Source: Botryllus schlosseri
Lineage: Eukaryota
Direction: 5' to 3'
Assembly (NCBI GenBank): GCA_051294905.1
Contig: CM119371.1
Coordinates: forward strand, 14,696,001-14,760,000
Length of the DNA: 64,000 nt
The notes beneath the pieces were generated by a model. The model did not search any database. It saw only the letters and a list, made by a program, of their open reading frames with translations, and had not been told where the DNA came from. A program made the translations under genes and the position numbers. Shown one piece after another: positions 350 to 64,000 of the stretch; positions within the stretch are counted from its first letter, which is position 1, and the number at the start of each line of letters is the position of its first letter.

Positions 350-1966
350 ATGACAAGATCTATTTATTTCGATCCGAGACAGCATGCAACATCGCAGCAG
401 ATGAAACAAGACGGTGTTTGTCATGATTTCATAATTCAAGTCGAGAATGATGAATATCACACTCATCAAAAGACATTGTCTGATGCTTCGGATTATTTCA
501 GAGCGATGTTCAGGCACGATACAAAAGAGAGTCGGGAAAGGCGGGTGATTTTGAAAGGTGTGGATTCTGAATGTGTACAAAACTGCATCAAATTCATATA
601 TGACGGGGAATATGAGATTCCGAAAGGGAAGATGTACGACTTTCTCCACGTCGCAGTCATGATGCTGCTAGATGACGTTAAAAAGTCACTGTGTGACGTT
701 ATGACTGAGTCATTGACTGTCAGTAATTACGTCTCCACGAAGCATGTAGCCGACATGTATGGGCTTGATGACCTGTCAGCAAAATGCAGATCTTACTTCC
801 GACGAAATGTCTCGGAAATCTTCAACCAACCGGGATTTGAAAACACCGAGATGTCCGACCTTCGTGACCTTTTGAAGGCGAAAGAATCAGGAATATGTGA
901 GGAGGACAAGTTGACCTTCACGCTCATGTGGATTGAGAATAATCCACGAATGAAATATATGCTGCGTCAATGTATTGATATGGTCAATTTGGATCATGTC
1001 TCTACGGCATTTCTGCAAAATCTATTAAATACCCATCCGATCATCAGCAACGACATTGAGTTATACAAGCTGATTAATGGCCATCTTATGTCCCATCACA
1101 TGACGATGGTACGCAGAAATGAGTACTTTAACAATACCAAAAGAATGATACTGTTTGACTATGACGCGAATTGCATCCGATCCTTGCATTCGATAACAGG
1201 AAAAATCTCAAAGTTCCATGCTGCTAAATTTCGGCATTTGGGATATTTTTCCGCAATATTACTTGAGTCCCACATTTACATTGTGTGTAAGGATAAATCC
1301 GTACGCCGAATCAATTTTCGAGACAATGATTCAAAATGGGAGAGAATGAAAGATATGATATCCGGACATGGGATATGGCCCCCCTCTGTTGCTTTGCTGG
1401 GGTCGATATTTGTTATTGGAGGTAGCATGTCAGGATCGTCTAATATTGTTGATGGATTCAACCCGTCTTCAAACCGATGGTTTCAACTAAAGAACAAACC
1501 CACAGCGGTTTCCGATCCGAGTCTCGTATCACTGAATGGCTCAGTGTATTGTGTCGGAGGTAAAGGACCAGATTGCGTCGCAACTTCCTCATTCTGCAAA
1601 TTTACTCCGTCCTCGTCAGAGTGGGTTGACCTCAAGCCAATGAGATATCCGAAGTGGGGCAGTGGTGTTGTCGCGTTTGGTCAGAAGATATTCGCGATCG
1701 GTGGCTGCACGTTGCGGAAGAAATTGACAAATGTAGAGTGTTATGATGTCACGTCGTCTCAGTGGACTTCACTGTCGCATATGAATAATTGTCATGGTTG
1801 GAATAGTGCCTTGCGCGTTGGCAGTTGGATATTTTCCGTACCAGTGTTTAAGTCTATGTCTTCTGATCCAATTGAGAAGTATGATTTACTAAACGACATA
1901 TGGCAGAGTAACGAATCACGTGTAGATCAATGTAGAGCTTACGCAGCCATTCTCGTATCGCAGTAG
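350..1966 (+). CDS. Kelch-like protein (BTB-BACK-Kelch), single coding exon, paralogue 1 (most divergent)
   Basis: BTB motifs (DFIIQVE..YHTHQKTLSDASDYFRAMF, FIYDGE), BACK region and Kelch GG..Y/W repeats. The first ATG at 350 lines up with the paralogue starts; acceptor-like tttttgttcgctAG ends at 320. The ORF-track start at 263 is a TTG. Confidence 0.93.
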   Translation: MTRSIYFDPRQHATSQQMKQDGVCHDFIIQVENDEYHTHQKTLSDASDYFRAMFRHDTKESRERRVILKGVDSECVQNCIKFIYDGEYEIPKGKMYDFLHVAVMMLLDDVKKSLCDVMTESLTVSNYVSTKHVADMYGLDDLSAKCRSYFRRNVSEIFNQPGFENTEMSDLRDLLKAKESGICEEDKLTFTLMWIENNPRMKYMLRQCIDMVNLDHVSTAFLQNLLNTHPIISNDIELYKLINGHLMSHHMTMVRRNEYFNNTKRMILFDYDANCIRSLHSITGKISKFHAAKFRHLGYFSAILLESHIYIVCKDKSVRRINFRDNDSKWERMKDMISGHGIWPPSVALLGSIFVIGGSMSGSSNIVDGFNPSSNRWFQLKNKPTAVSDPSLVSLNGSVYCVGGKGPDCVATSSFCKFTPSSSEWVDLKPMRYPKWGSGVVAFGQKIFAIGGCTLRKKLTNVECYDVTSSQWTSLSHMNNCHGWNSALRVGSWIFSVPVFKSMSSDPIEKYDLLNDIWQSNESRVDQCRAYAAILVSQ

Positions 1967-3436: not shown

Positions 3437-3784
3437 TCTATTCCAGTAAAACAACCAAGCGTATTGATTGGTCACGTTTATATCTGCCACAAGAATGTTT
3501 TAACGATGGGTGTAGTCACTTGAATTGTTAGCCTACGCTGTCTCAACTGCACGATATAACCATTATATGTTGTGATATTGCATCAGGCAACCTTTAATCG
3601 CCAAAGGCGCTAGTCAGAACCTAATAAATTAATATTTAGGCCTAACGCAGGACGCACGCATTTTGGTGACAGTTTATGTTGTCTGACATTCTGCGGTAGC
3701 CTTGTGCTCAATAGTTAGAGTGTTTGTTTCTTTAAGAGTAAAGTCTCAATCATGAATCTCATGATATTTGACTTTGTATTGTAT

Positions 3785-14945: not shown

Positions 14946-16313
14946 TCGTTTTGAAAACTGACCACCACACCGGTCAATTTGATATTTTTGTATATTGTTA
15001 CAACGAACAGTGACAAAATATACACCAACAACGACTCCGATACATTTGTGTAATCGCATACTCACTTGTTCTGGTGCATCCCATCAAAATTGACGGTTAG
15101 CCACACACACACACACACACAATAACAACGCGCTATTTCGATATGACGGCGGTGTCCGGGTTCGTGCTTTAGATTTTCCAGAATCAATCCGTCTGAAGTT
15201 GTAATCCCGCGACTTTGTTAACTGGTTGATACACGCATAACAATCTTCGGAAAATGTGGGAATGCATGCTACCCATTGTGCGCACGATTCCAGGTTACTT
15301 GTGATTAATTTCCTTGCTCACACTATACAGATTATACGTACAGTGATATGTAGCGGTAATCGGTTTGGTCAATACATATCGCCCCATTTAGTATGGAATT
15401 ATAAACCCAACACAGGTCAGTCCATAACCGGATCCGGATATTCAATGCAAAGCGATAAAGCAGAACCAATGACCAAATGTAATTAAACATGTAGATTCAC
15501 AACCCTTGGTTTTTTTTTTCGTGAAAAATGACAATACATATCGAATATATTTCACGAGAGTTCAACCCTACCAAGTATTCACGTAAATGTGGTTTATGAC
15601 ATTACATACAATGTGTCGGTGTACAAATGTTGGGTGTTTATGCACACATCGGTATGACCTATAGACAACATCATCATACCCTCCAGGACTTCGTTATTGC
15701 ATCGCGAGTTCAATAAAATCAATTTTGTATATTCAATCGGTGGCATAGACGACGGAAGGCTTGGAGATCCAATGTAAAATTCAGACAAACAAACGGGTAT
15801 ATTTGTCCGTCTTGGTTATGCACTCAACTACCATTGGTGCTCTCGATACAGCGAACGGTACAGTATGCAACGCATATCATTATCAATATTTCGTCAATAT
15901 TCCGACTAGCCCACAACCTTTGCAATTGATGATCAAAGTCTACCGTTGGAAGAATCGGACGTGACATTATCTCTGATGTGTTCGCCGGAGCACATAGCCT
16001 ACATCCATTGGAGCCCAATTGGTTATTGCTTTGATGAAGTCCGCCAATTGCGTAATTCTATTTTGATATCTGTAGAGTTGAATCACGGGATTCGGCTTTG
16101 GTATGGCTGTGTGTAATCCTGTAAGTGGGCGCTAACATCGATCATTAGCTTTATTGTCGTACCAAAACAATTCAGAATAGCTGGTGCGTTTGAGAGAAGT
16201 GTATGCGTTCGCGCATTGAAAACGTGGCTATAAGGCAGTCGTTTGCTAATATTCCGTGTCCCGTAGAGATAATCAAATACTTATTAACTTACGTGCAACC
16301 TTAACATTTGTAG

Positions 16314-16870: not shown

Positions 16871-17632
16871 GTTTCGTCTAAATACTCGTTACTGAAAGAC
16901 ATGTAACTGACCTAAAGCACACGTTTCACACATACAAACAACGCACTTTACCCTTGACATATGTCACCGTGTTTAGGAGTGTATGTGACTTATTGATGTC
17001 CGGGCTACGCCCATATTCGAGTTTGCTTCATGCTCAGGCCGCGTAGTTCCGTCTCTTCATCGCGGGGATCGGATTCGCAATTTAGAACAATCACGATCAA
17101 GCTACACACTATAGAAATGATCCCTAAAAATATGATCTTAGTTTGTCGAGTCCAGTCGCGCGGTGATACTCGAAAAATGATATATAGCTTTAATGGTGAG
17201 CAGAGCATCGTATTTCTCTCTCTCTCCATCCCTCTACCTTTCTTCGCTGCCCACATGCGGATCGCTGATTTCATTCTCTAATCTGGGAGAGTTGAGACTG
17301 CTCTTGCATACGGATGGTAAAGTGAATTTTATCGCCCAACAAGAATTTCTGCTAAGCGTGTGATTATAAGTCTGAATGATAGACGAACGGGGCTACCGAC
17401 GGGATGACACATGTATGTATGTATATACATGGGCTATTTCGCCCGGTCGTTATGACGATTTCACAAATAAAGGTGATGTAAACGTACCCCAAAACTATTT
17501 CCTATTTCACAAAACTGAAAGTGTGAAAAATATGTAGTTTTGCTTAACAACTGAAACTGTAACCATTTGAGTATACTTATATACTTATACCACTTGAGTA
17601 CCGATACTGAATAGCTTACATCACGTTTCCAG

Positions 17633-17767
17633 ACCAACGAGGGTGCTTCGCTCCGAACGAATTGGGCAATTGTGAAACGCTGTCCAAGTATTTCTGCAGC
17701 AACACTAACGCATTCCACTGCTGTAATGGGGATAATTGCAATAGCCAAGATCCGCTGCTGAACTGGG
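17633..17767 (+). CDS. Exon: C-terminal half of Ly6/uPAR (three-finger) domain 1
   Basis: QRGCFAPNELGNCETLSKYFCSNTNAFHCCNGDNCNSQ (RGC...CCxxDxCN); bounded by tttccAG / GTGAG. Confidence 0.85.
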
Positions 17768-44636: not shown

Positions 44637-46256
44637 ATGGTACGAGTTGTACGTCCTGATGTGGAAAAGCACGCAGTTTGTATGATGGCTGAATTGCATC
44701 GAATGAAGCAAGATACCGATCATTGTGATTTTTTAATTCAAGTCGGAGATGACGTCTATCGTACCCACAAAAACGTATTGTCGGCTGGCTCCGCTTATTT
44801 TAGAGCTATGCTTAAACACGACACGAAAGAGAGTCGCGAAGGAAGGGTCGTTTTCAAAGACGTTGATTCAGAGTGTGTAAAAAATTGCATCGATTTCATA
44901 TATTCCGGTGAATTTGAGATTCCTGATGGAAGTATCGTTGAACTTCTTCACGTCGCAATTATGATGCAGCTGGAAGATGTAAAGCAAGCCGTGTCCAATA
45001 TTTTGGCGGATTCACTTACTATTGAAAATTATTTCTCTACCAGAAATGTGGGTGATATTTATGGACTGGCTGATGTTTCTTCGAGATGCAAAATATTTTT
45101 GCTCGAAAATATCTTGGATATCTCAAACCAACCTGGATTTGAAAGCATTGAAAAAGATGATCTGCTCACTCTCTTTAAATCGGAAGGATCGAAATTATGC
45201 GAAGAAGAAAAAATTGCGTTATCGCTCAAGTGGATCGACAAATGTCAAAGTAAAAGTGAATTTTTGCACGAATTTCTCAATGTAATCAAGTTTCATCTAA
45301 TATCCCTGACATATTTGCAACAGATTTTAGAAACTCACCCCCGTATAAGCAACAACTTGGAGTTGTACAAGTTATTCACTGGACATATTCTGAAAGCTTC
45401 CGTCAATGTCAAAGAGGATAATGACGCTGATAAATTGTTGATTTTTTTTGACTATCGTGAACAAGGCCTCCGATCCTTTAATCCGAGAACAGAGGAAATA
45501 GAAAAGTTTCATGATGCGAAGTGTGATTTCCGTGCATTTTTCACAGCGATATCACATGACTTATATATTTATGTCTTTTGTGAAACTAAATCAGTTCATC
45601 GGCTCAACTTTCGTGACAAAAATTCAAGATGGGAGAAGATGAATGATATGATTTGCGACCACGGTATTACTCCAAGCTCAGTTTGTTCAACCGGATCCAT
45701 AATCGTTATTGGAGGAAGTGGTTTTACAGAGAGAGCTGATGTTGAAAGATTTGACCCATCTGTGAATCAATGGTTTCTACTGCGAAACAAACCGTCAGCC
45801 ATTTCTAATGCAACTCTCGTGTCATTGGATGGTTCCATTTACTGTGTCGGAGGTTGGTGAGATGATGTCGAAGTTCCTTCGTTCTGCAGATTCACTCCAT
45901 CCACATCAGAGTGGGTTGATCTCGAGCCAATGAGATATCCTGCTCATAGCTGTGGTGTTGTTGCAGTTGATAAAAAGGTATTTGTGACGGGTGGGTATAG
46001 TCGAGAACAGACTGTCAACAAGGTAGAATGTTACGATGTCACTATAGCTCAATGGACTTCATTGCCATCTATGAATTCATATCATGGCATCAATACTGCT
46101 TATCGCATCGGTAATTGGATTTTTGTAGTGGATGTATATAGCGATTCTGATGTGATTGAGAAGTACGATTTATTGAGCAGAAAATGGTATTGTATGAAAA
46201 AACGTGATGAACTACTTTATCCCCGCGGATCTGTCATGGTGATGGAATATGGTTGA
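44637..46256 (+). pseudogene. BTB-BACK-Kelch paralogue 2 with an in-frame TGA at 45858-45860
   Basis: ORFs 44637-45860 and 45930-46256 share a frame. The sequence reads GGT TGG TGA GAT where paralogues have GGT TGG CGA GAT; otherwise it is full length. Confidence 0.9.
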
Positions 46257-48806
46257 AGGAGGACGCGGTATATTGTAAAGTGAACTAAACACGTCTGTGA
46301 GTAGATTGATGTTTAAACATGCTTTGCTGAACATGGAATAAGTCTCAGTTGTGCTGAAGCTTCAAAATGATGGTTGATTGTGTTGAAACGCCGTTTTGTT
46401 GCAGTATAGTCTGGTTGTACATCTACTTGGAGACTTATTCTTAGAGTTAGAAAATTAATATTTGTTTATTGGATAATGACCATTCGTCGTTGCAGCCGAT
46501 TGGTCTAGCAAGCATCTCTGATTATAGCGCAAGTTTTTGCAACTTTCTTACAGCTTCCGGTTGCTTCCTAAATTCTCAGAATTTATGTTGTATGATGTTT
46601 TGAGCAGTTGAAGGAATTTTACATTGCCGCTTTTTGTATTTTTCCATGCTACTTTTTACTCCAACTTTTATCAAGTATTGATAACGTAAAAGGATGATTT
46701 TAAAAACATGCGATAAAACTATTTCTAGTATGGATCTCTCTTTGATCTATGTGATTGATTAGCTGCATCTCAATGTTGTCTATGACACAATGGCTTGTGA
46801 ACTAGAAGTTCAACAACCCGTGCTAGGCACGACAGTGTCTGAACTATATGTAAATATCTTGCTTGATTGATTCACCCTCGTTTGAATTTGAGGCCCTTCC
46901 CCATTTGACAGACGCCCATGCGAGACCGCCGAAAATCACATAATCACTGGGCCACCTTTTCAAGCTGTTGATTTTGTTAAAGTCGCGAACACTGAGTTTC
47001 ACTGCAATGCCTTGGGTTAGGTTATCTCAGCTAGGGGGATTGGGATGTGGTATTTGACTTGTTGTATGGGTTATCGATTTGCTTTTTGCGGAAAGGTATT
47101 CACGTTATTTTCTTGCTGCTTCACCCGGCTGTAGCTGACAGCGAAAAGCTGTCATATAGGTTACAAACTGAAAGAACATAAAAGTGTATGCATGATCAAT
47201 TGAAAGTCAACACAACAGGATTTCTCGTACAAATCTTAGAATATAAGAAGATTTCTAGTCCAGTAATGTAACTTGTGTTCTGTAGAAAGTGTCCTCCTTT
47301 CCGAATTCCAAAATATGGTTCGGTAACCCTAAAATAAAAGTAATGCAGCAAATTTGTACTCAACGCGTCATGATCTCCCGCTAAAATGTGTATTCATTTT
47401 TACTGCAAATGGAACGATGATTTGTAATTTGAAATGCTTGCATATCGCTGGTGATCTGATGTGCAAATAATATGGCTTCTTTTTGTCTCTTCGAGTTGCT
47501 ATAGTATGTGCATGAAAGTGGAGCTTATACTGGCATTATATACATCAAATACGCGAGTTCATCAAAACGGTGAAGCTTGTATGATCCATGTATGATAGGG
47601 GTTTCCGCATCCTACTTAACTCTAATAAATGGATGCTACCATGGTAAATTTGGAGTGGTATTACACCTGTTTCATTAATCCCCGTTCTTCTCGCCTGGGT
47701 AAACTGTTATCGTAATTTTGTCACCATATATAAGCGACTAGGTTATTGGTTATATTGAAAACTTGCAAATCGGTGTAAAGGTAATTATTTAGCATTTACA
47801 TCACTTATTTGTGAATTCCGCCGCAGTATGATGTCACCTGTTTTTGATGTCATCGATCCCACATTCCTATGGAAAATTAGCGTTCGACGCTTATGTAAGA
47901 TGGTGATAAATTTTGAAATCGCAATATGTATCCGCACGACTAACGCAAAATGACCAATGACCAGGCATGTTTATTTTTGACATAAGCAAAAAATCCAACA
48001 TAGCTTATTTTCCAGATTTTATTTTTGGCAATTTTGGCGTCGCCCTGAAATCATGTTTGTAGGCTTCAATTAATCATGTAAAACGCTTTTGTTTAGGTTT
48101 TCTTATCTTTGCCATCACTCAGCAAGACTAAAAACCGAAGAAATGACGATATTTGAGAGCAAATTCATCTGATAGAAAACCGACTACTTCTGCCATATCT
48201 GATCTCAATAGTTGACTTGCTAGTTGCTACGCATGCAAAATTACGGCATTCAGACAATACACTATACCACTTGTGATAGTAACTCGAGAGGGTTTTTGGC
48301 ACGTTTGGATCACAGCATCCACTGCCAAATGAATAGTTAGAAACCACGGGTGTCTTCAATACTCAGTGTATTATTTAAACTTAGTCTATTATTTAAAAAA
48401 TTCCACCGGGCAAAGTAAAATCAATCAATGAACTTGCCTCCATCATTGTTGTTGCTTATTGTACAGCTAACTAAATGCAGGCTAAATATTTGGTATTTTC
48501 CGTATTCCTGTCCTCATTCAGTCAGATGTTTTGTATCACCAATATGTTGATCAGGGATATCCCTGATGTTGGTGATTATGTTCGATCCTTATATTCAACT
48601 GGTTTCCTTCAGAAACTTTCATTGAATGTCTCTGCAATTTTCGAAAAATGTATGATTGTGTTCCACTGTAGAGTTATCATTCAATATATATTAACGTGGT
48701 TGGTTACCAGCAGTTATCGATATAGGTTATTTTGGCGATGTGAATGATTTGTGTGTACTTTGACTCTAATCATGTGTATTTCAAAAACAGCGCGATAGTC
48801 TTCAAT

Positions 48807-50914
48807 CATAGTGTCCTATATGGTGTCGACACAAGCAAATCGCACGGCTCAATGAAATTGTATCACGTCACAGTTTCCATTTGGCCACAGGCAATTTGAC
48901 GGTGATTTTTAACCGACTTGCCGAGCATTAAATTTGATGAATCGGGTATCGATCGAAAGCTGACGCTGTACTGCTTGCGAAAATATAAATTTTATTCCAC
49001 TCATGGCCCTGGAACCCCCACAATCTGCCCCAAATTATTCATTGTCCAGTAGATTGGCAGTGTGACGCAACAATGCTGTCTGGCGAAACGAGAGACTAGC
49101 TCAAGAGCAAGGATGCGGCCGAGCGGCGAGAGTGGGATCAGCTGACGTCGCGGCAATAGCAATGTGCAACCGCGCCACAGAGAAACGCAGCGCTGTTGAT
49201 ACTTTTTCTATGCGTTTCGGTACAAGCGAGCACACACCAGCCTTTCCTTGACTTGTAAGGGTAGAACTGGGTCCACAGAATGTATTGGGGCCCTACCAAT
49301 TTTCGCGCAATATCCTTCAGCTGATAGAGATATGTAGGCTACGTCTAAGTAGTCTACATTGGATATGTCAGATTATTATGATATCGATTGCCTTAGCCCT
49401 GCTTGTTGCGTAGGGCTCCAGAGACACGTCGCGCTGTTGATGGCGGGTGTCGATACTTTCTATAGTCGCTTTTATGGTTAAGTGTGAGCAAGGAGCATTG
49501 AGCATGAGCATACATTACAAGCTTTTATTTGATCCGTATGGGTAGGACTTGGTCCGCGAATGCAGCAGGTAAAATGTTGATTGTTGAATAAAGTTTAACA
49601 GCAGGAGTGTCGAATTAAACTGGTATCGCTGTCCGGATTCAATCCGTTACTAGAAAGCTTGCGGGCCATACCTGCCAAATGATTCCAAAATGTTACCACC
49701 AAATTCATACCTTTGTTTTTCACTGGAATATATCTGATATCACTATAAACGTTGACGTTGGAATTTGGTTTAGCATTTTTCAATCACCAAACAGTTTTTT
49801 TGAATGCCGGGGACCTTTTGCGTCAAAAGTAATACAGTGGTATCACATCACAGATATTTGAATTATATTCATTCTGTAGCCTGTATATATATTCCTAATG
49901 TAACTTACGTAAAACGGATTTGCAGTATTTTTTTGCATCTGTGAATAACTGAATGTCCATTCGGCCCAACAGAGTTTGCACTTTTTCGCCTTCTCGGAAT
50001 TTGGCAAGGTCACCGACGTGGTGCTTATGGGGAGTAGAGTGAAAACTCAACACTGTAGTTGTATTAGTACAATATGATATTTTTACATTATCTAAATTTG
50101 CTGTCTTGAGGGAATCTTATTACTTGAAAGTATATTTTTCTTACTAGAAATATCTCTAACAGCTGAAGGATTGCGCGAAAATTGGTAGGGACCAAATAAA
50201 TTCTGTGGACCCAGTTCTACCCTTACAAGTCAAGGAAAGGCTGGTGTGTGCTCGCTTTTAGCGAAGCGCATAGAAAAAGTATCAACAGCGTCACGCATCT
50301 CTGGTGCCCTACGCAACAAGCGGGCTAAGGCAATCGATATCATAATAATCTGACATATCCAATGTAGACTACTTAGACGTAGCCTACATATCTCTATCAG
50401 CTGAAGGATATTGCGCGAAAATTGGTAGGGCCCTAATACATTCTGTGGACCCAGTTCTACCCTTACAAGTCAAGGAAAGGCTGGTGTGTGCTCGCTTGTA
50501 CCGAAACGCATAGAAAAAGTATCAACAGCGCAGCGTTTCTCTGTGGCGCGGTTGCACATTGCTATTGCCGCGACGTCAGCTGATCCCACTCTCGCCGCTC
50601 GGCCGCATCCTTACTCTTGAGCTAGTCTCTCGTTTCGCCAGACATCATTGTTGCGTCACACTGCCAATCTACTGGACAATGAATAATTTGGGGCAGATTG
50701 TGGGGGTTCCAGGGCCATGAGTGGAATAAAATTTATATTTTCGCAAGCAGTACAGCGTCAGCTTTCGATTGATACCCGATTCATCAAATTTAATGCTCGG
50801 CAAGTCGGTCAAAAATCACCGTCAAATTGCCCGTAGCCAAATGGAAACTGTGACGTGATACAATTTCATTGAACCGTGCGATTTGCTTGTGTCGACACCA
50901 TATAGGACACTATG
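48807..50914. mobile_element. P/Galileo-like foldback element, ~630-bp TIRs, 7-bp TSD
   Basis: CATAGTGTCCTATATGGTGTCGACAC..; arms 48807-~49440 and ~50281-50914 are nearly identical in inverted orientation; TSD CTTCAAT at 48800-48806 and 50915-50921; extra repeat unit at ~50150-50290. Confidence 0.93.
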
Positions 50915-50953
50915 CTTCAATATAGAAATATTCTTGACAAGTGATTGGTGTCC

Positions 50954-52576
50954 ATGATGCAGGTTGTTTGTCGAAATGTGGCAAGGCATGCTGTGAGGAT
51001 GCTCGAGGAATTACATCGAATGAAGCAAGATGATGATCATTGTGATTTCATAATCCAAGTCGGAGATGACGTCTATCGTACACACAAAAATGTGTTGTCG
51101 GCTGGTTCCGCTTATTTTAGAGCCATGTTGAAGTATGACACGAAAGAGAGTCGCGACAGAAAAGTTGTCTTGAAAGATGTGGATTCTCAGTGTGTGAAAA
51201 AGTGCATCGATTTCATATATTCGGGTAAATTGGAGATTCCTGATGGAAGTATCATTGAACTTCTTCACGTCGCAATGATGATGCAGCTGGATGACGTAAA
51301 GCAAGCCGTATCCAATATTTTGGAGGAATCTATCACCATTGAAAATTACTTTTCTACCAGAAATGTTGGTGATATTTACGGACTGACGGATGTTTCTTTG
51401 AGATGCAGAATATTTTTACAAGAAAACATCATGGAAATCTCAGATCAAGCTGGATTTGAAAGCATTGACAAAGATCACCTTCTCGGTCTTCTGAAGTCGG
51501 GAGAATTGAAATTATGGGAGGAAGAAAAGCTTGCATTATCGCTCAAGTGGATCGACAAATGTCAAAGTAAAAACGAATATTTGCACGAATTTCTCAAAGT
51601 AATCAAGCTTGATCTAATATTCCCGGCATATTTGCAACAGATGTTAGAAACTCACCCCCGCATAAGTAATGACTCCGAGCTGTACATGTTATTCTCTGGT
51701 CATATTCTGAAAGCTTCCGTTAAGGCAAAAGAAGACAATGACGCTGATAAATTGATAATTCTTTTTGATGGTGACACAAAATGCCTCCGATCCTTTAATC
51801 CAATTACCGAGGAAATAGAAAAGTTTCATGGTGCAAAGTTTGATTTCCCAATGGGTTTCACAGCGATTTCTCTGGACTCATATATTTATGTCTTTTGTAA
51901 AGCTAAATCCGTCCATCGACTCAATTTTCAGAGAAAAAATTCAAAATGGGAAAGAATGAATGATATGATTTGCGACCATGGTATTGCTCCAAGCTCAGTT
52001 TGTTCAACAGGGTCCATAATCGTTATCGGAGGAACCGGTGATACAGAAAAAGCTGATGTCGAAAGATTTGACCCATCTGTAAATCAATGGTTTCTACTGC
52101 GACACAAACCGTCAGCAATTTCCAATGCAAGTCTTGTGTCATTGGATGATTCCATCTATTGTATCGGAGGTTGGCGAGATGGAATCGAAGTTTCTTCGTT
52201 CTGCAGACTCACTCCATCCTCAGCAGAGTGGGTTGATCTCGAGCCCATGAGATGTCCTGCTGATAGATGTGGTGTTGTTGCAGTCGATCAAGAGATATTT
52301 GTGACGGGTGGGTATGGGTATAGTGAAGATGATATCTTCCACAATGTAGAATGTTACAATGTTACTTCAGCTCAATGGACTTCGTTGTCATCTATGAATT
52401 TACCTCATTGCATCAATAGTGCTTATCGCATCGGTAATTGGATTTTTGTAGTCAATGAGTTTTGGGAATCTCATCACATTGAGAAATACGATTTATTAAA
52501 CAAAAAATGGTGTAACATGAAAAAAAAACCAAGTCATTTGTTCGATGTTTGCGCATCTGTAATGGTGAAGCTATAG
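50954..52576 (+). CDS. BTB-BACK-Kelch paralogue 3, single coding exon
   Basis: Intact ORF with the same domain motifs; first ATG at 50954 (the track start is a TTG). Confidence 0.93.
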   Translation: MMQVVCRNVARHAVRMLEELHRMKQDDDHCDFIIQVGDDVYRTHKNVLSAGSAYFRAMLKYDTKESRDRKVVLKDVDSQCVKKCIDFIYSGKLEIPDGSIIELLHVAMMMQLDDVKQAVSNILEESITIENYFSTRNVGDIYGLTDVSLRCRIFLQENIMEISDQAGFESIDKDHLLGLLKSGELKLWEEEKLALSLKWIDKCQSKNEYLHEFLKVIKLDLIFPAYLQQMLETHPRISNDSELYMLFSGHILKASVKAKEDNDADKLIILFDGDTKCLRSFNPITEEIEKFHGAKFDFPMGFTAISLDSYIYVFCKAKSVHRLNFQRKNSKWERMNDMICDHGIAPSSVCSTGSIIVIGGTGDTEKADVERFDPSVNQWFLLRHKPSAISNASLVSLDDSIYCIGGWRDGIEVSSFCRLTPSSAEWVDLEPMRCPADRCGVVAVDQEIFVTGGYGYSEDDIFHNVECYNVTSAQWTSLSSMNLPHCINSAYRIGNWIFVVNEFWESHHIEKYDLLNKKWCNMKKKPSHLFDVCASVMVKL

Positions 52577-53399
52577 ATCACTGGTTTTTAAACTGTATGA
52601 TACACCAATCTTAGGTGGTTGTGGCGTATTCTATCGTGGTCTAGAAATTTATGTGTATTATGTTTAAACATTCATTCTTGAAATCGGAATAAGTTAACGT
52701 TGTGTTGAAACTTCAACGTTTTTGGCAATCTGATTTGAAGCTACTTTGTTGCATCAGCAAAAATGGTTGTATGCATTATACTGAGTGATACGGTAGCTTA
52801 ATTCATTCAGAAAATTGTGAGTTTTGAGTTAACCCGCAATATATGCAAGAGATAATATTAGTGACGGAATTTGTTCGTTAACTTTGAAAAATTTTCGCGG
52901 TTAATACCTTCGTTACTACATATAGAAGTCGAAATATTGCCATAACTTTCCAAGACATGGCAAAGCTATTTCAAGCGAAACAAGAAAATGATTGCTCTAG
53001 AACAGTGAAGTCAGTGCATTTTCAAGGGGTCAGTGAAACCTCCAAATTTGCAAAATGGTTGATGACAGAATCTGTATTATTTTTAATCAGAGAAATCACG
53101 AGGCGGTTTTGCATCGTTACCGCAAAAACTATAAGACTCGCATAAACATAATTGCAGTCTGAGATAGAATATTCAACTCTACAAACTCATTTTAATTGCC
53201 AATAGCTGATTGGTACAAACATATTGCTGTTTAGAGTTGTTCTGTTAGGATTTTGGTAGAAATCTGTTAACAGAAATTCATTTTCTTTTGTTTATACGTG
53301 CTGAACAGAATGACTTCTAGATGAGCTGTTGAATAAAAATGACTAGGGTGGACGGTATATGTTCACTAAGAATCTGTTTCTCAATCTTGGTGCCATGTA

Positions 53400-54222
53400 C
53401 CGTAATTTTCCGAATATAGTGCGCCCCCATGTATAATACGCACCCTTAAAATGACGTGTATATTCTGGGGAAAAGCCTGTGCCCATGTATAGTACGCACC
53501 CTGCATTCGCAGTACATGAATAGTTGCGGTTTAGTATTCGATGTTGTTCTGTTTTGCGATGTCACTGTCGCACAATCATGACATAATGATCGCTAATCAT
53601 AATACAATTACCAGCATTGTCTCTTAACGAGAGTAGATAGTAGGGATGGTGTGAGGTCGGCGACGCGATAGCTCAAGCTAGTGACACATATGACATCTTG
53701 CGCACTAGGTTTATTACAATTACAGATGCGATTGCTCAGACCAACGGTTATGTCGGGCGCAGCAGCCCTGTCGGAGATGCGACTGATTACGCAAGCGATT
53801 ATATCTTGCGCACATGGCCTCTTGTGTATGCGATTGTTAAGGCCTGTCGTTAACGCGATGAATCAGCAAGGATTGCCGCGCACACTTGTAGCAATCAGCG
53901 ACCTAATTTCGCTAGAGAACAAACGGCAAACCAACTCAGCAAGAGATCGAGTGCTCTGCAGACGACTCTCGTTAATTGGAAACACGCTTTTCGTTAATTG
54001 GCAACAGGCATCTCTATTTGGCAGTGCGTCACACTCTATAATACGAATTACGGGGCCCAATGGCTAAAGGTGATGCGCGATTTAAACAAACATGAAGAAA
54101 GGTGTGATTTCAAGTTTTTCGATATTTCTTTCAAGGCTTGCTGTATCCATGTATAATACGCACCCCCCTAATTTAGGGCAAAAATCGGTACAATTTTGCG
54201 CATTATACATGGAAAATTACGG
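53400..54222. mobile_element. pogo/Tigger-like (Tc1/mariner) non-autonomous element
   Basis: TA|CCGTAATTTTCC...GGAAAATTACGG|TA, with CATGTATAATACGCACCC subterminal motifs. Confidence 0.88.
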
Positions 54223-55575
54223 TAAGTTGTGATCATACCCAAAGGTGTCGTCGGAAGCGTTACTGGTTTATTACACTCGCCACCACCACCATCTTTCAGC
54301 ACTCGTTCATATCCAATCGATGGCGCAAATTTTAAAGACACGACCGCCTATTTCAAGAAATGCAACCACAGAATTCGCTTTGAAATGAAAAAATTTCTAC
54401 ATAGATAGTATTATGTTATTTTCAAGAAAAGTCGTTTTGATGCTGTTTATCACAGTGTCTACAGTTGAAGGGGCAATGCACTCTAAAAATGATGTGGTCT
54501 TAAATTGAAGGACAAAACAAATGAAAATTTTTGGCCGCAGCCATTTATTTCAGAACGCCACCGTAATGGAGCTGCAATTTATTGAAATCTCCACTGGGGT
54601 CTCACGCTCCAGCAGTCACGCAGAGATCGAACTTTATATAGTTGTCAGCCGATGTCATGAAGGAAATATGTCATAGACGCCAAGGTGGTTTAGATACTCC
54701 GTTCAACGGAAGATGTCCAGTCAGGAGATTTATGTCAAAATCGGGCCTAGTGTCTTCTATTTCTTTAGGACAGAAATAGAACATGTCCTATTCTTATGTA
54801 TAAAACATTGTTTATGTAGAAACACATTTGAGTATGCTAAAAAAGGAGCAGTAGCCTACTTTGTTACAGCTGATATCTGCTAACGTCATTCTAAGAATGC
54901 CTCCGTCAATATGAGAAATCTTTGAAATATTACTGGATTGCATTAGGCAGAGAGCGGATGAGATTTTCTCCATCCACTGTTGACACTATCATATCATAGA
55001 ATCTTGGATGTTGTCGCTTTTTATGGTTTCATGCTTTACTGTTCTATATGTTGACTGCCTAATAATTTCCTTCACTTATCATTCATCTCTGTCAGCTAAT
55101 TATTGCTGTCGATCATAGTCGCGATAATGTTGAACCACCGTTCTTTTTCGTACACTTGCTTCAAATTAGTGGTATAAGTCTGTTAACGTCACTCTTCTTA
55201 TATTTGCAACTGCAATTTTATGTCTTATATGTTTTTGTTTCCGCAGGAATAAAATTAGTGATAGTCTATTGCTGGATTGCGTCCTAGTTCAGCTGTTTGG
55301 GTGGGATTATTCAAAATGGTTATTCAAAACAAATTTTTGGGATTGTTGGACAAGATTCTCCTGATCCAAATGGATTGTCCTTCGGATACTGAGCTGTCGG
55401 ACAAATTCAGATTCTTGAAAATGAAATTTTGCTCAACACACGGACAAGAGCCAGTTTCATACAGAGCATGAGGTTGGTTTTTGCTAGAACTCTGGTCATT
55501 ATGATTTGGCGACTGTGGTGGAGGGATCATCCAAATGTCAGATTTGACCGTTTTCTTGTCATTTGTGATGTCAAT

Positions 55576-58314
55576 AGGCCTTTTGCAGGACTTCGATCAC
55601 GTGACTAGATACGCATAGCAACAACAAATTGGTTAGCAAGCTACTTTCTCGCGCACCTGCTTCAGTGCTAAATATCGCAAAGTGTACTGTTCATTTCTGG
55701 TTGTGAACGTTTCGGAAATTTGTTGTAGAAGTCATCTGAGATTTACCTATGCTAGATGTCAATCCTGTACAAAGCACATAGAATGATATCGTCAGAATTA
55801 CGTAGAAATCCGTCGTTAACGTAGCCGTATTTCGGATACAGAATATAATCGTTTTCGGGCTGTAAACGTTCGCAAGTGTCATGGAGATGCGCAAGGATTC
55901 AAATATGTTGGGTGTCTTTGATTCATGAACTATGTGAACTCCTTGCGTCAAAATGATCGACATTGTAGCCGTTATTTGGTAGTCAACTATGATTTTATGA
56001 CACAAAATTCGACATTGCAGGATATTCACTGCGTGATATTTATTGCAGCATTAAGTTAGGTGTGGATAGTATACTATAGTTGTATTGTAGCGGTAGTTGG
56101 TAATCATTGCAGCATTTTGATGATTGATATCGATTGCAATATATATAGGATACTGCTATTTTTAAGCCTAAGAGACAATGACTGCCAGTGCCAGTACGTT
56201 GATGTGTTATGAAGTCATGCAATGTGCTACATACCATATATACATTAAATATCCTAAGCTATTGTATGACTTCTCAGTTAAACAATTCAAAATATTTAGA
56301 CCTCTACACCTATATTACAAGTTATTGATCATTCTGTCATGCTGCCAAGTGCCACTACCCGAAGGAAAATGATCATGAGCTCCAATTGAGGGTGAAACAA
56401 ACTGTCCCGGGGCCTGGATTACTTGATTGATTGCCTGGATTGGATTACTTCACTCTATGGCACAGTGCAAATATCTTGAGTTTCAAGACATATGGCTATA
56501 CCACATGCATACGAATTAATGATCTGATGGATTATCCCAAGAGAGCCGAACATAGGCAACTAAGAAATTGATGATGCCCTCGTCAAGAATTCAGCCTGGA
56601 TCCAATTATTATCACCACATAAAATTTGGTCATGCGGTGGAAGGCAGCGTGGTTTCATGCCAACAGAAAATGTCAGCAGATGATCTGACCACTGACTAAC
56701 TGTCCTGAACTTCTTTCCCGATGTTGATGTCTGCTTTGAAAATGATATTTCATTTGTGTACAGCAAGACAGGCGCTCTTCCGTGGATGCTATGAATATGT
56801 CAAGACAAGTGGCTATGGAGGTAGAGGAAAATACATTGGCATAACAGTCTCGGTAGTTATTGAACTTGATAAGGTTAACATCCATTTTTCTTCAACTATT
56901 TCGTGTGCTCTGGGTATCGAATGCACAAAAATTAATAAATCGATCTTCTTTGCAAGTTTATTTGTAAATTCAATGAATCAAAGAATATCATAAGTTCAGA
57001 ATATTACGGAGTCAATGCGAAAGAAACAATGTTAGTCGTCTTTAGAGGATGTTTCTGAGTTGGTTGAGCCAATACATAGAGGGGGTCAGCAACGAAGTAC
57101 TATTTTACCTGAATACTAGCGTCATTATGAGTTTAGGCTACTTCCACTTCTACTTGACACTTTTTAGGTAGTACTTTTTTGTCAACTAGAAAGTAGCTTT
57201 GGCGCATGATTGCATCCCCTTCAAGCGTGAGGTTGTCATAGCAACTGGGCAAAATAGCCCCAGTACCACGGTAACTAAATTAATTTTTGAACATTGCACT
57301 TATTTGTGGTGTCATCACCCTTTTGCGTTGATCAAGAAGATGCAACATGCAATGTTTACAGTTGTCACATGGCATCAATTTCTAAAACTAAGTGACCCTC
57401 AACCAAATCTAATTCATGTAACGAATTTCTTGACCGCTTTTCAGAAATTCATTTCTACTTCCACTTGAAGTACTTTGGACATGTCCTGGAAGTAATTAGT
57501 GCTACTTGTACTGGAGTATAAATTAGGGCATTACTTCTACTCGGTTCCCAACAATGACCACGTTGACCACGTCTGGGTATAGGATGACCGATCTTGTCAC
57601 TGCGTTTGAGCTGCTCTAAGAGTTATATGATAGTTACTTCCCTTAGTTGGCTAAATATCGCACATATGTGACATCAACTATTTATCAAAATCGAGTGTGA
57701 TTTGCCAAATCCACTTCAATCGCAGTTGCGAAGTAGTGGTAATAAAATTGGCATTGTATAAGGCAACAGTAAAGTGCACTGATTTGCTTAGTCTTGACGG
57801 CAGGTTCTCCCAAAAGATACTTCCGATGTGTTCAGCGACATTTGTTTTATAGCAGCACGCCAGCACCCAAACCAGCAGACAGTATATCCTGATCCTTGCG
57901 GGTCCCGGCTGCTTCAGCCATATCTTCCATCCAAAATCAGGCTCCACAACAGACAAATAGTACTGCTTGAACTAACAAATACTCTTACCAGAATATAAGC
58001 CAATTGCTTTACTTCAAATGCATAAATTTAAGTACATATGATCAGAGTTGAGTACCGTAATACGACTAAGTTACCGATGGATATCTGCGTAATTCTGACG
58101 ATATCATTCTAAATGCTTTGTACAGGATTGACATCTAGCATAGGTGAATCTCTGATGACTTCTACAACAAATTTCCGAAACGTTTACAACCAGAAATCAA
58201 CAGTACACTATGCGATATTTAGCACTGAAGCAGGTGCGCGAGAAAGTAGCTTGCTAACCAATTTGTTGTTGCTATGCGTATCTAGTCACGTGATCGAAGT
58301 CCTGCAAAAGGCCT
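55576..58314. mobile_element. ISL2EU-like DNA transposon remnant, ~240-bp TIRs
   Basis: AT|AGGCCTTTTGCAGGAC...GTCCTGCAAAAGGCCT|AT in a CAATTG site. Weak internal remnants: TC..WIIPR and EVEENTLA*QS on +, YCC..C..LKWI on -. Nested hAT fragment at ~57077-57575. The element itself is certain; the superfamily call is tentative. Confidence 0.75.
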
Positions 58315-58789
58315 ATTGTTGGCCATAAGTTGTGTGCACTGTTGACTCGAATATTCGAGTGAAGTTGAATCAGTCAAATTTCGCCCAGTCTGTCTCAATT
58401 TATTTGATTATTCATGTTTACTGTCAAAACATATTTTATGCCTGTTATTCTATTTCATCTAGCAAACACCTAATCAGTCAGTAGTGATCATGGTTTGAAT
58501 GGTGTGCTTGGATGCTGAAAATCACGCAGTGGCTTCCATATGACCAAATGAAAAGCAGAAAATACATTAACGGACCAAGTCAAAAAGTTTGGCGGCATCC
58601 TGCAGCGTATTAATTTTATTTCTTAATTGAAAGCAGTGAATAACAGTGTTAATACATGCTGCTCGTTCCCTCCCGAGCTGTGTGCATCTTGGTGAAAAAG
58701 CCTTGTTGTCGAGCAAAGCTAACAGTTCTCCAAAATTCGCCGCCCTTAATCGAGTGTCTGTCTTTGTGTTTTTGTCACAAGACCAGTGA

Positions 58790-59971
58790 CCGGACTTCTG
58801 GGGGCCTTGCCCCCAATCCTCCCCTCAGCTTATAAGTTTTTTACCTCTACTTATCATCTATAGGTTATTGGGTGTCCATTTAATGAGTAAGCTTTTCTCG
58901 GCTAACCGCGCGAAGCGCGAATTTTTTTTATAATTCATGATTGAATCGGTCAATAACATCGAAAATTTCATATATATATTGGTATGAATTTTTATCCTTT
59001 CTCTGCTCACGTAATCAGATTTACCGGTAGAGCGGATTGAGGTGTGTTTTAAAAGTTAGGACCACTGTTGGCAGGAACGAAGCAGCACTTCGTCAGGTCC
59101 CTAAAAAAACGAGGGTCTTGGGCTCCCATAGGGTGATAAACCGACCATCCCCCGATCATGTTGTTCGCTTTTACCACGAAATTAGTTGTACTATATAGTG
59201 AGCACGCGCCAAGCGCGAAAATGTTCAATAATTCATAATAAAATCGGTCAGTAAGATCGGAACTTGCATATGCATTGCTATCAATTTCTTGTCCTCTCTG
59301 CTCGCGTTATCAGATTTACCGGTAGAGCTGAGTGAGGAGTCTTGGAAACTGTAAGGCTCGTAAATAATAGGCTAATTAAACATCTTCAGGCGGACGGACC
59401 TGTTGGTATGACTTCGTTACATGATGTTATTTCGTGTCCTCCGCTATATCAAAAAATATATAATCGCATAAATGTACTAAACTAAAAGACGCACTCAATT
59501 TCAAATTGGTATTTCTTCACTGGCATATAATATTTCCCTGCGGGATGGTATTTGTGAAGATTGTGAGGTTCAGATTGCTAAGACAGGAACATTCGGCGTC
59601 AGTCATTTAGGCGCCTATGGACAATTAAACCTATACGTATCAGCATAAGCGTAGTTCTTTTCGGCCAAGGTTTTCTCGCTACAGATCATTCTGGCACATT
59701 TTTTGGAGTTGCATGTTACATGACCTAAAACTTTATATCTTGGTACGTCGTGGCGCGGTAATGGCCAACGCCGATATGCCCATTTCTATAAATCTTGCGT
59801 ATTCTTTCTTGGGTGAAGAGTACCTAATAATTAAGATATTCGACAACTTGAAATCTGCATAAATTTTCAAGAAATACTTTATAATTTATGCTAATTCACG
59901 AAATAATTTTGGGCCCCCTTCGAGCTCGCCCCCCCCAATTAGGGGGTTTGGGGTGCGGCAGTTACAGTCCT
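58790..59971 (-). mobile_element. Inverted copy of the 19445-20763 hAT family
   Basis: Reverse-complement homology along its length, ending GGGGTTTGGGGTGCGGCAGTTAC. Confidence 0.85.
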
Positions 59972-61130
59972 TCCCAGAGTATAGATCACTAACCTATGGA
60001 TAGATGGGCAACTTAGTAGCCTAGTCAGTGTTGTCACACTTGAATTCCCAGACAAGCCTCCTGCTGAGACAGCTAAAAGCAGCATAATTGGTCATGGCCA
60101 TGGCCATCCTATAGTTGGCCAGGCCGCTCGAGCGCTCAAATTTAACAATACTGATCTTAATCGAAAGCTATTGTTGCCCTGATTCCGAAAATACAATTTA
60201 AATGCTGGTCAGAAAATCGGCATTGTTCCGAATAATCGCTCGACATAATTTCCATTATCATGTTCAATTGGTCATCGTGTTGCGGCACTCCGATTGTTAG
60301 GAACAATTGGCCTTGACGGCTATTTTGGAGTGGTTCCATTGGCATGTTAACATATTCGGAATCAGCGCGACACTATCTTTCGATTGAGACCAGTTTGATT
60401 AAATTTTAGCTCACGGGACGCCAGCTATAGGACTACCAATTACGCTGCTGTTAGCTGGCTGTGTACTGTACACTGTGCACTGTGTGCAGCTGCAGCCTCA
60501 TTTTGCCGCCCCCTTGGAGCCTGCCGCCCCTGGCGCAGAGCCAGAACCGCCAAGTGGCTGCTACGCCACTGGTATGATCTAGTTGTACATGTGGTATTTG
60601 ACTTGTTGTATGTGTTATCGCTTTGCTATTTTGCTTTTTGCGGAAAACTATTCACATTATTTTCTTGCTGCTTCACGCAGCCGTACGTGAAAAGGGAATG
60701 CACCAAATTCCTTAGGTCCACTGGAGCTGACATTGAAAAGTTGTCATGTAGGTAAAGTAGGTTACAAACCGTAAGAACATAAAAGTGTATGGATGATCAA
60801 CTTATACTTAGCTTATACTGCATGCATAGCATGATTAGCTTATGCTGGCATTATATACAGCAAATGCCCGAGTTCATCAAAACAGTGAAGCTTCTCTGAT
60901 CGATATATGAAAGGGATTTCCGCATGTACTAATAAATGGATGCTACCATGGTAAATTTGAAGTGTTTTTAAACCTCAATATTAACAAGATGGTTACTGGC
61001 AGTTATCAATGCAAGTTATTCTGTCAATACGAATGATTTGTGTGTACTTTGACTCTAATCATGTGTATTTTAAAAACAGCACTATAGTCTTTAATATAGA
61101 AATATCCTTGACAAGTGATTGGTGCCCATT

Positions 61131-62747
61131 ATGCTGGTTGTTTGTCACGATGTGGCGAGGCATGCTGTGAGGATCCTCGAGGAATTACATCGAATGAAGC
61201 AAGATGATGATCATTGTGATTTCATCATCCAAGTCGGAGATGATGTCTATCGTACACACAAAAATGTATTGTCGGCTGGGTCCGCTTATTTTAGAGCCAT
61301 GTTTAAGTATGACACGAAAGAGAGTCGCGACAGAAAAGTTGTTTTGAAAGATGTGGATTCTCAGTGTGTGAAAAAGTGCATCGATTTCATATATTCGGGT
61401 AAATTGGAGATTCCCGATGGAAGTATCATCGATCTTCTTCACGTCGCAATGATGATGCAGCTGGATGATGTAAAGCAAGCCGTATCCAATATTTTGGAGG
61501 AATCAATCACCATTGAAAATTACTTCTCTACCAGAAATGTTGGTGATATTTATGGACTGGCTGATGTTTCCTCGAGATCCAGAATATTTTTACTAGAAAA
61601 TATCATGGAAATCTCAGACCAAGCTGGATTTGAAAGCATTGACAAAAATGACATTCTCGGTCTTCTGAAGTCGGGAGAATTGAAATTATGGGAAGACGAA
61701 AAACTTGCATTATCGCTCAAATGCATCGACAAATGTCAGAATAAAATCGAATATTTGCACGAGTTTCTCAAAGTAATCAAGTTTGATCAAATCTCCCCAG
61801 CATATTTGCAACTGATTTTAGATACCCACTCCCGTATAAGTAACGACTTCGAGCTGTACAAGTTATTCAGTGATCATGTTATGAAAGCTTCCGTTAAGGC
61901 AAAAGAAGAAAATGACGCCGACAAACTGATAATTCTTTTTGATGATGTGGCAGAATGCCTCCGATCCTTAAACCCAACAACCGATGAAATAGAAAAGTTC
62001 CATGATGCGATGTTGGATTTCCCGGAGGAATTCACAGCTATTTCCCTGCACTCATATATTTATGTGTTTTGTGAAGCTAAATCTGTTCATCGGCTCAATT
62101 TTCGGAGAAAAAATTCAAAATGGGAAAAGATGGATGATATGATTTGCGACCATGGTTTGTCTCCAAGCTCAGTTTGTTTAACTGGATCCATAATCGTTAT
62201 CGGAGGAAGTAGTTTTACAGAAAAAGCTGACGTCGAAAAATTTGACCCATCTGTTAATCAATGGTTTCTACTGCCAAATAAACCGTCGGCCATTTCTAAT
62301 GCAAGTCTCGTGTCATTGGATGGTTCCATCTATTGTATCGGAGGTTGGCGAGATGAAGTCGAAGTTTCTTCATTTTGCAGATTCACTCCATCATCATCAG
62401 AGTGGATTGATCTCGAGCCCATGAGATATCCTGTATGTGAGAGTGGTGTTGTTGCAGTTGATCAAAAGATATTTGTGACCGGTGGGTGGAGTGAAGATGA
62501 GTCCCTCAACAATGTAGAATGTTACGATGTCACTTCAGCTCAATGGACTTCATTACCATCTATGAATTCATGTCATGGCAAGAATACTGTTTATCGCATC
62601 GGTGATTGGATTTTTGTAGTGGATGCATTTGACAGTTCTCATGTGATTGAGAAGTACGATTCAATGAACAAAAAATGGCATAGAGTGAAAGAAGCTGATA
62701 AACCTCTCTATCTCTGCGGATCTGTCATGGTGAAGGAATATGGTTGA
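61131..62747 (+). CDS. BTB-BACK-Kelch paralogue 4, single coding exon
   Basis: Intact ORF; first ATG at 61131; branch-like CTCTAAT and acceptor AAAACAG at 61079. Confidence 0.93.
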   Translation: MLVVCHDVARHAVRILEELHRMKQDDDHCDFIIQVGDDVYRTHKNVLSAGSAYFRAMFKYDTKESRDRKVVLKDVDSQCVKKCIDFIYSGKLEIPDGSIIDLLHVAMMMQLDDVKQAVSNILEESITIENYFSTRNVGDIYGLADVSSRSRIFLLENIMEISDQAGFESIDKNDILGLLKSGELKLWEDEKLALSLKCIDKCQNKIEYLHEFLKVIKFDQISPAYLQLILDTHSRISNDFELYKLFSDHVMKASVKAKEENDADKLIILFDDVAECLRSLNPTTDEIEKFHDAMLDFPEEFTAISLHSYIYVFCEAKSVHRLNFRRKNSKWEKMDDMICDHGLSPSSVCLTGSIIVIGGSSFTEKADVEKFDPSVNQWFLLPNKPSAISNASLVSLDGSIYCIGGWRDEVEVSSFCRFTPSSSEWIDLEPMRYPVCESGVVAVDQKIFVTGGWSEDESLNNVECYDVTSAQWTSLPSMNSCHGKNTVYRIGDWIFVVDAFDSSHVIEKYDSMNKKWHRVKEADKPLYLCGSVMVKEYG

Positions 62748-63369: not shown

Positions 63370-64000
63370 GGTTTAGTAAGTTAGCTTTTATCGCCTATAG
63401 ACACGCGAAGCGCGAAGATTTTCTTTAATTCATGATTGAATCGGTCAATATGATCGGGAATTGCTGCCATCAATTTTTATCCTCTCTCTGCTCGCGTAAT
63501 CAGTTTTACAGGTCGAGCCGAGGGAGGTGTGTTTGAAAAGGTAGGCCCCCTCAATAATAATTAAACATCTTCGGGCGTATACCCGTTGGCAGGAACGAAA
63601 CAGCACTTCGTCAGCCCCCCTAAAAATATAAAAATAAAAATAAACTTGGGCCTTGGGCTCCCGTAGGGTGATAAACATACCCCTATCACCTTGTTCGCTT
63701 TTGCCACGAAACTAGCTGTACCGTTCAGTGAGCCAGCGCGAAGCGCGAAAATTTTCGATAATTCGCGATAAAATCGGTCAATATGATCGGGAATTGCATA
63801 TATATTGCTATCAATTTCTTGTCTTGGCTGCTCACGTAATCAGATTTACCGGTAGAGCTGGGTGAGGTGTCTTGGAAACTGTAAGGCCCGTTAGTATGAT
63901 TCCGTAACATGTTATTTCGTGACCTACTGTCTGCTATATCAAAAAATATAGAATCGCCCAAACGTAGGCTTCTAAACTAATAGACGCGCACGATTTCAAG
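63370..64000 (-). mobile_element. Further inverted copy of the 19445 hAT family, running off the window
   Basis: CGCGAAGCGCGAAAATTTTC, CAGATTTACCGGTAGAGCTG and CAGCACTTCGTCAG blocks. Confidence 0.8.

Follow-up and report, generated by a model that had tools for sequence, protein, structure and literature searches.

Four BTB-BACK-Kelch coding regions in tandem

We analyzed a stretch of 64,000 nucleotides from the ascidian Botryllus schlosseri (assembly GCA_051294905.1, contig CM119371.1, positions 14,696,001 to 14,760,000 of the forward strand; hereafter the window) and, within it, a cluster of four genes for BTB-BACK-Kelch proteins that we call K1 to K4. All four coding regions are open reading frames without introns on the + strand, and the presence of four copies in 64 kb amounts to a tandem expansion:

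350..1966, + strand: K1, intact BTB-BACK-Kelch paralogue of 538 residues, on an older branch, about 49% identical to K2–K4
44637..46256, + strand: K2, BTB-BACK-Kelch paralogue interrupted by a premature stop; the frame is open for 407 residues, and 131 further in-frame codons follow
50954..52576, + strand: K3, intact, 540 residues, with BTB at 22–126, BACK at 127–235 and a six-bladed Kelch propeller at 266–539
61131..62747, + strand: K4, intact paralogue of 538 residues; 5′ end K3-like, C terminus and about 250 bp of 3′ flank K2-like

A first-pass annotation, made from the sequence alone, had placed three such paralogues between 44637 and 62747. Pfam finds BTB, BACK and Kelch domains in each of these three, as had been proposed, and K1 is a fourth member outside that interval. 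BTB (PF00651, E values of 1e-17 to 1e-21) and BACK (PF07707) score above the cut-off in all four proteins, and only two or three Kelch repeats are detected per intact protein. The Gly-Gly motif is absent from blades 1, 2 and 6 of K2–K4, and the BC loops of the same blades are short. No further fragments besides K1–K4 came up when the window was searched with tblastn.

The family had also been called intronless. This holds for the coding regions but perhaps not for the whole genes, since a conserved motif ending in AG, which may be a splice acceptor in the 5′ untranslated region, lies 40–50 nt 5′ of the ATG. Its counterparts end at 44593 (K2) and 61079 (K4), and the K3 copy is displaced:

48765..48790, + strand: conserved upstream motif ending in AG, K3 copy, cut off from K3 by an inserted element

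There were no spliced joints among the read joints listed for read mapping over the cluster.

Differences among K2–K4 map to loops of a predicted propeller

An AlphaFold model of K3, built on a 33-row alignment (mean predicted local distance difference test score 91), is predicted to contain a BTB domain with its N-terminal helix, 3-box helices at 132–141 and 145–162, BACK and then a six-bladed propeller closed by the C-terminal strand. The best whole-chain Foldseek matches of this model are KBTBD2 and KLHL22 in CUL3 complexes, and the Kelch domain of KLHL12 superposes on it with a root-mean-square deviation of 2.7 Å. The propeller is not complete in K2, where the stop falls inside blade 4.

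In Kelch proteins, the substrate pocket is formed by the DA and BC loops of the upper face, as described in excerpts from Canning et al. (2013; PMC3597819). The first-pass annotation had quoted 18 peptide segments, representing six variable stretches in three paralogues, and all 18 are present in the translations. With loops assigned via the strand list of the K3 model rather than via coordinates, all six stretches lie on the top face, four of them in BC loops (blades 1, 3, 5 and 6) and two at the pocket end of the DA loops that precede blades 2 and 5:

51767..51784, + strand: K3 residues 272–277, BC loop of blade 1, top face
51845..51859, + strand: K3 residues 298–302, pocket end of the DA loop before blade 2, top face
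52034..52051, + strand: K3 residues 361–366, BC loop of blade 3, top face
52256..52270, + strand: K3 residues 435–439, pocket end of the DA loop before blade 5, top face
52313..52345, + strand: K3 residues 454–464, BC loop of blade 5, top face, carrying an insertion of 2 residues and ambiguously aligned
52454..52477, + strand: K3 residues 501–508, BC loop of blade 6, top face

Three of the K2 segments that had been quoted as protein (PAHSC, YSREQTVNK and DVYSDSDV) all lie beyond the in-frame TGA of K2, a stop that had gone unmentioned.

Variable positions among K2–K4 number 18/105 in BTB, 37/109 in BACK, 26/125 in the propeller strands, 57/111 in the top BC and DA loops and 17/38 in the bottom AB and CD loops. 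The strands are as conserved as BTB (p = 0.51), so the contrast is one of loops with core (top loops versus strands, p = 1e-6) and not of BTB with propeller, and we rejected a propeller that is hypervariable as a whole. The BTB segments of paralogues 2–4, described as nearly identical, are so in K3 and K4 (98%) but not in K2 (85% and 83%).

A plain count gives no significantly higher share of variable positions in top than in bottom loops (p = 0.57), and we rejected a difference of that kind as well. The proposed concentration on one face survives for positions at which all three copies differ, which make up 20/111 in the top loops and 1/38 in the bottom loops (p = 0.016), 4/125 in strands and 1/214 in BTB and BACK. 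The highest variability, missing from the earlier list, is at residues 521–532, preceding the closing strand. Synonymous divergence is alike in top loops (0.29) and strands (0.28). Among nonsynonymous K3–K4 codon differences, 20 of 44 in the top loops involve two or three changes, compared with 1 of 26 in BTB-BACK-IVR (p = 1e-4). The net charge of the top face is +8 in K1, −5 in K2 and K3 and −16 in K4. For tests of specificity, a short list of pocket residues comprises K3 274, 300, 301, 437, 438, 484, 504, 505 and 508.

Decay, exchange and insertion in the cluster

The premature stop of K2 is a single codon:

45858..45860, + strand: in-frame TGA, K2 codon 408, in the blade 4 BC loop; K3 has CGA (Arg) here

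The pair TGA and CGA is consistent with a CpG transition. Past the stop, K2-specific changes to the scaffold are 8 nonsynonymous and 0 synonymous, versus 9 and 10 before it (p = 0.01–0.03; the counts are small). Because of this difference, decay is suggested, and K2 is probably a decaying copy. The stop site was not among the 40 of 225 variant rows listed for read mapping.

K2–K4 are also mosaic. On the 5′ side of codon column 189, informative sites back the pairing of K3 with K4 (76/15/11); on its 3′ side they back none of the pairs (78/77/67; p = 0.0005). With the test restricted to synonymous sites, p is 0.01 and the breakpoint lies earlier. In the roughly 250 bp past its stop, the 3′ flank of K4 is 84–88% K2-like, with K3 at 62% or less. 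In one X5 contig, a K4-like copy has a single base inserted at 62107. Just upstream of K3, an element has been inserted:

48807..50914, no strand assigned: noncoding element of 2.1 kb, inserted 39 bp from the K3 ATG on its 5′ side, with terminal inverted repeats of about 640 bp (97%) and a target-site duplication of 7 bp

This element, which we take to be Galileo/P-like, has about 1000 times single-copy depth in run X1, and related arms lie at 6513–7183. A contig from X1 joins 50914 to 53634, as if K3 were deleted; we rejected a deletion, as the joint begins exactly at the end of the high-copy element and its short side has 21 letters.

The birth-and-death evolution proposed in the first-pass annotation is supported by the nonsense codon and relaxed downstream scaffold of K2, the mosaic copies, the transposon beside the K3 start and the many divergent relatives in Styela clava described below. 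Summed contig depth over Kelch-coding bins is 4.6–10.5 times single-copy in X1 and 12–40 times in X5, a run of unrecorded kind, although depth is not copy number; there are hints of extra near-identical copies. Kelch bins are deeper than BTB-BACK bins (45562–46192 versus 44931–45561 and 60706–61336; for K2, 10.5 versus 3.0 times single-copy in X1), and despite this higher depth the window paralogues share little Kelch sequence that is 95% identical. Among 110 candidates, none scored as a short Kelch-only relative.

Selection on the propeller

We examined selection with our own GY94/F3x4 implementation and naive empirical Bayes, not with PAML. The ratio of nonsynonymous to synonymous substitution rates (dN/dS) is 0.16 in BTB, 0.41 in BACK, 0.25 in strands, 0.57 in bottom loops and 0.91 in top loops. 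For the propeller, comparison of site models M8a and M8 gives a 2dL (twice the log-likelihood difference) of 15.1 (p = 1e-4) and a class of sites with dN/dS near 4. The test gives p = 0.005 when ambiguous loops adjacent to indels are masked, p = 0.004–0.007 when K1 is included and p = 0.01–0.03 for the intact pair K3–K4; it is not significant for the pair K2–K4 (p = 0.11–0.12). The BTB-BACK half gives no signal of a class with dN/dS above 1 in site models. The posterior exceeds 0.8 at 14 sites, 12 of which belong to the top face, and the observed value was not attained in any of 53 plain null simulations.

Several results weigh against diversifying selection. The data comprise three or four coding sequences, one of them the broken K2. 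Mean dN/dS of the top face (0.91) is not above 1 (p = 0.58); that of a pocket subset chosen after inspection of the data is 1.16 (p = 0.45); the difference between top and bottom loops has p = 0.06; and, when loops alone are compared, selected sites are not significantly more frequent on the top face (p = 0.06–0.13). When doublet mutations are fitted on the Kelch data, the site test gives p = 0.026 (full) and 0.10 (masked). Fitted site-rate variation gives p = 0.15 and 0.10, or 0.18 with doublets too, and leaving out K2 while allowing doublets gives p = 0.17–0.23. The Kelch part preceding the K2 stop gives p = 0.23 by itself, the signal coming mostly from blades 4–6. With doublets, 5 of 52 null simulations equal or exceed the observed value, and the propeller scaffold alone fits a doublet rate of 0.05. 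In favor of selection, the N-terminal half yields a fitted doublet rate of about 0, with an upper limit near 0.05, and a rate set at 0.04 leaves the Kelch test at p = 0.006 (full) and 0.036 (masked). The notion that some codons evolve with dN/dS above 1 is favored by the standard site models, with a class near 4 (p = 1e-4 to 5e-3), but loses strength under more permissive models (p = 0.03–0.23). From these codon comparisons, we give diversifying selection about two chances in three of being real. Diversification of the substrate face is supported as to its location, and positive selection moderately so.

It is also possible, though we consider it the less likely explanation, that constraint on the family has only been relaxed, such that the loops drift near-neutrally after duplication, conversion homogenizes the rest and the copies are largely redundant or decaying. 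The top-face dN/dS of 0.91–1.16, which is indistinguishable from 1, would fit, as would bottom loops that vary about equally often and a site test that loses significance with doublet or rate-variation models. So would the broken K2, the transposon in the K3 leader, the insertion at 62107 in the K4-like copy from X5 and an RNA depth near zero (see below). Harder to explain by drift are the three-way differences on the top face (20/111 versus 1/38 on the bottom), the multi-change K3–K4 codons concentrated there (20/44 versus 1/26, p = 1e-4), the N-terminal doublet rate of about 0, the purifying selection that still acts on BTB and strands, and the equal synonymous divergence of top loops and strands (0.29 versus 0.28).

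Named relatives are ascidian

A profile made from K1–K4 and one relative was searched over 1.84 billion representatives. Full-length relatives of 510–580 residues are among the best 150 matches considered. Of 30 relatives looked up, 14 are named, all of them Styela clava "kelch-like" proteins; 15 are in Logan only and 1 is in ENA only. The Styela proteins share with K1–K4 the BTB-BACK-Kelch layout (513–577 residues) and an H-D-T/N-x-E motif, whereas those aligned to K3 are less than 30% identical to it. Their names (kelch-like 3, 5, 8, 12, 20, 24, 26, 28, 30 and 40; for example, XP_039264566.1, XP_077976160.1, XP_077975123.1 and XP_077975124.1) are automatic and inconsistent between versions, and are no evidence of orthology. 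Six of these proteins are encoded on one 20.3-Mb contig. The unnamed relative P0023, a full-length frame on a 24-kb contig, provides a single hint that uninterrupted coding extends beyond the window.

In a FastTree tree of 86 rows, K1–K4 and all 14 named Styela proteins belong to a single group of 36 rows (support 96), within which K1–K4 branch off separately, along with unnamed Logan proteins that are 36–51% identical. A single origin of this group is likely from the tree, which is midpoint-rooted and long-branched, whose rows come from a profile built on K1–K4, and in which the other 50 rows are mostly unnamed. None of 19 pattern matches in metagenome contigs was confirmed as a relative. Searches of open-access full text turned up no account of a KLHL expansion in ascidians or of these Styela proteins, subscription papers being outside their coverage.

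Could the K genes derive from a large DNA virus? Poxvirus BTB-Kelch proteins such as A55, M-T8 and C2 have the size and architecture of the K proteins and no introns, and such an origin would account for the absence of introns here. Poxvirus BTB-Kelch proteins also head the viral fold matches, and among the Atlas clusters one is viral. However, identity to them is 20% or less, not above that to human KLHL proteins; none of 429 pattern matches in viral contigs was confirmed as a relative (exact short patterns, with low reach); and the named relatives are all ascidian and the genes neighboring the cluster cellular. We regard a viral origin as extremely improbable and, given the low identity, the ascidian relatives and the cellular neighbors, rejected it.

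Probable Cul3 adaptors

The loop that would contact Cul3 is recognizable in K3:

51140..51148, + strand: K3 T63-K64-E65, at the position of the phi-x-E motif, in the Cul3-binding alpha3-beta4 loop; Glu is kept and the hydrophobic anchor is replaced by Thr

Across the 33 family rows, Glu65 is retained in 30, and S-x-Y-F and Glu65 in 28–31. Judged by architecture and fold, the most probable role of the K proteins is that of dimeric substrate adaptors for a Cul3 ubiquitin ligase, by homology with human KLHL and KBTBD proteins. Like KLHL3, KLHL11, KLHL12, KEAP1 and KBTBD2, K1–K4 have the same domain order, the 3-box helices, six blades and a BC/DA pocket. They differ in that identity is 15–22% with no clear orthologue, that the copies are tandem, uninterrupted and unstable, that K2–K4 lack Gly-Gly in blades 1, 2 and 6, with short BC loops there, and that the family has Thr at the Cul3 anchor.

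This anchor argues against Cul3 binding: the phi residue is Thr in 19/33 family rows, Asn in 8/33 and Met in 2/33, versus Met in KLHL3 and Leu in KBTBD2. In KLHL11, Phe130 at this position inserts into a Cul3 pocket, according to passages of PMC3597819. One alternative, which we think quite unlikely, is that the BTB-Kelch fold was kept and the use of Cul3 lost, leaving dimeric scaffolds or decoys; the truncated K2, with BTB-BACK and about three blades, could then be dominant-negative. The prevalence of Thr and Asn at the phi position, the Phe130 contact and the location of the K2 stop in the sole coding exon would all be compatible with such a loss. The retention of the motif Glu, S-x-Y-F and the 3-box helices speaks for continued Cul3 use, and full-length transcription of K2 was not seen in RNA runs X21 and X23.

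Taking these lines together, we favor, with a probability of roughly 0.6, an ascidian (styelid) expansion of BTB-BACK-Kelch genes that evolve by birth and death as Cul3 adaptors, with a pocket that is probably diversifying. The BTB-BACK half would dimerize and dock on Cul3, and each propeller pocket would recruit its own target for ubiquitination, part of the pocket residues (about 5–14% of propeller codons) being under diversifying selection. Copies would be born by local duplication, would swap segments via conversion or unequal crossover, which would help keep the BTBs of K3 and K4 alike, and would die through nonsense mutation.

In chordates, KLHL genes are generally regarded as stable, with a single copy each. 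In nematodes and plants, work by Thomas from 2006 reportedly described F-box and MATH-BTB adaptors with a constrained cullin end, a fast substrate end and birth-and-death evolution. The architecture of the K genes is textbook, and their evolutionary pattern is known from other adaptor families (worms, plants). A tandem, mosaic, partly dead clade with a fast pocket in the sister group of vertebrates would extend this "unstable adaptor" pattern to chordate Kelch propellers. The unstable F-box families of Caenorhabditis, as portrayed in sections of PMC8665587, resemble the K family in their constrained cullin-binding end, fast substrate-binding end and birth-and-death; the K family differs in its cullin module or substrate domain, having a Kelch propeller, in being chordate and in an observed repertoire of tens at most. 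Until a substrate or an expression pattern is at hand, the K cluster stands as an evolutionary pattern of known type.

Expression and possible targets

Two RNA runs were considered as raw reads, X23 (about 6% read) and X21 (single-cell, about 3% read); the tissues of both are not on record. Raw depth is 0–0.54 over the repeat-free coding bins of K2–K4 and 0 over the 3′ half of K2, which weakens the case for working adaptors. This shows only that expression of K2–K4 is low in X21 and X23.

What might the adaptors target? One tentative possibility is the germline, where retrogene-like Cul3 adaptors in maturing gonads would degrade gamete-specific substrates, as Klhl10-Cul3 does, with reproductive selection driving change. 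Klhl10-Cul3 functions in sperm differentiation, as set out in extracts of PMC1976628 and PMC8568611. In B. schlosseri, a contig named "Kelch-like protein 10" rises 224-fold in fertile colonies, and the genes that change expression at stages A1 (3/188), B1 (5/200) and B2 (2/48) show enrichment for BTB-Kelch terms, according to text passages and 24 of the 33 supplements of PMC4523013. Their human best hits are scattered, as would be expected from a divergent family. The uninterrupted coding regions and the near silence in two RNA runs, which fits narrow expression, would also be in keeping with germline function. Against this, the covered parts of PMC4523013 give no sequence tie between these contigs and the K clade, so that these could be genuine KLHL orthologues; the enrichment analysis used human homologues and a human background; and the tissues of X21 and X23 are not on record.

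Alternatively, as the first-pass annotation had suggested, the targets could be foreign, with innate adaptors recognizing viral or microbial proteins in the cytoplasm and routing them to the proteasome. We think this somewhat doubtful. The same signature of a fixed cullin end, fast substrate end and birth-and-death is read as defense in unstable nematode F-box genes, in the portions of PMC8665587 covered here, and the strong turnover of charge and side chains on the pocket face would fit by analogy. Apart from this nematode analogy, no supporting evidence from expression, infection, blood cells or binding was found, the signature is equally compatible with reproduction, and the single-cell run, at 3% read, has almost no reads on the K genes. 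We therefore lean slightly toward a role in the germline or gamete maturation over intracellular defense, and regard the former as at least as plausible as the latter.

A bolder idea, for which we hold out little expectation, is that styelids maintain a repertoire of Cul3-Kelch adaptors with fast turnover, whose pockets would be diversified by selection and shuffled among copies and whose near-identical BTBs would permit heterodimers with two different pockets, giving a chordate combinatorial intracellular recognition of non-self proteins, be it a pathogen or an allogeneic gamete or stem cell.

Other features of the window

An element of 2.7 kb at 55572–58318 has inverted ends of about 264 bp (95%) and no frame over 119 residues. 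We rejected the RNA reads at this element as expression of the cluster, as they carry fixed differences in X21 and X23 and probably come from another copy of the repeat. On the − strand at 2865–3499, 0.9 kb from K1, lies an intron-free fragment of a G-protein alpha subunit, presumably Gq-like, with a frameshift near 3185; it ends about half-way and looks like a processed pseudogene. Copies of a repeat family with about 3000 times single-copy depth in X1 are at 19446–20680, 23489–23876, 58800–59971 and 63371–63999, and a tandem array of about 17 copies of a 41–42 bp unit is at 14177–14960. Cysteine-rich, FN3-like and trefoil (PF00088) exons lie at 17611–17877, 20691–20975 and 27024–27527.

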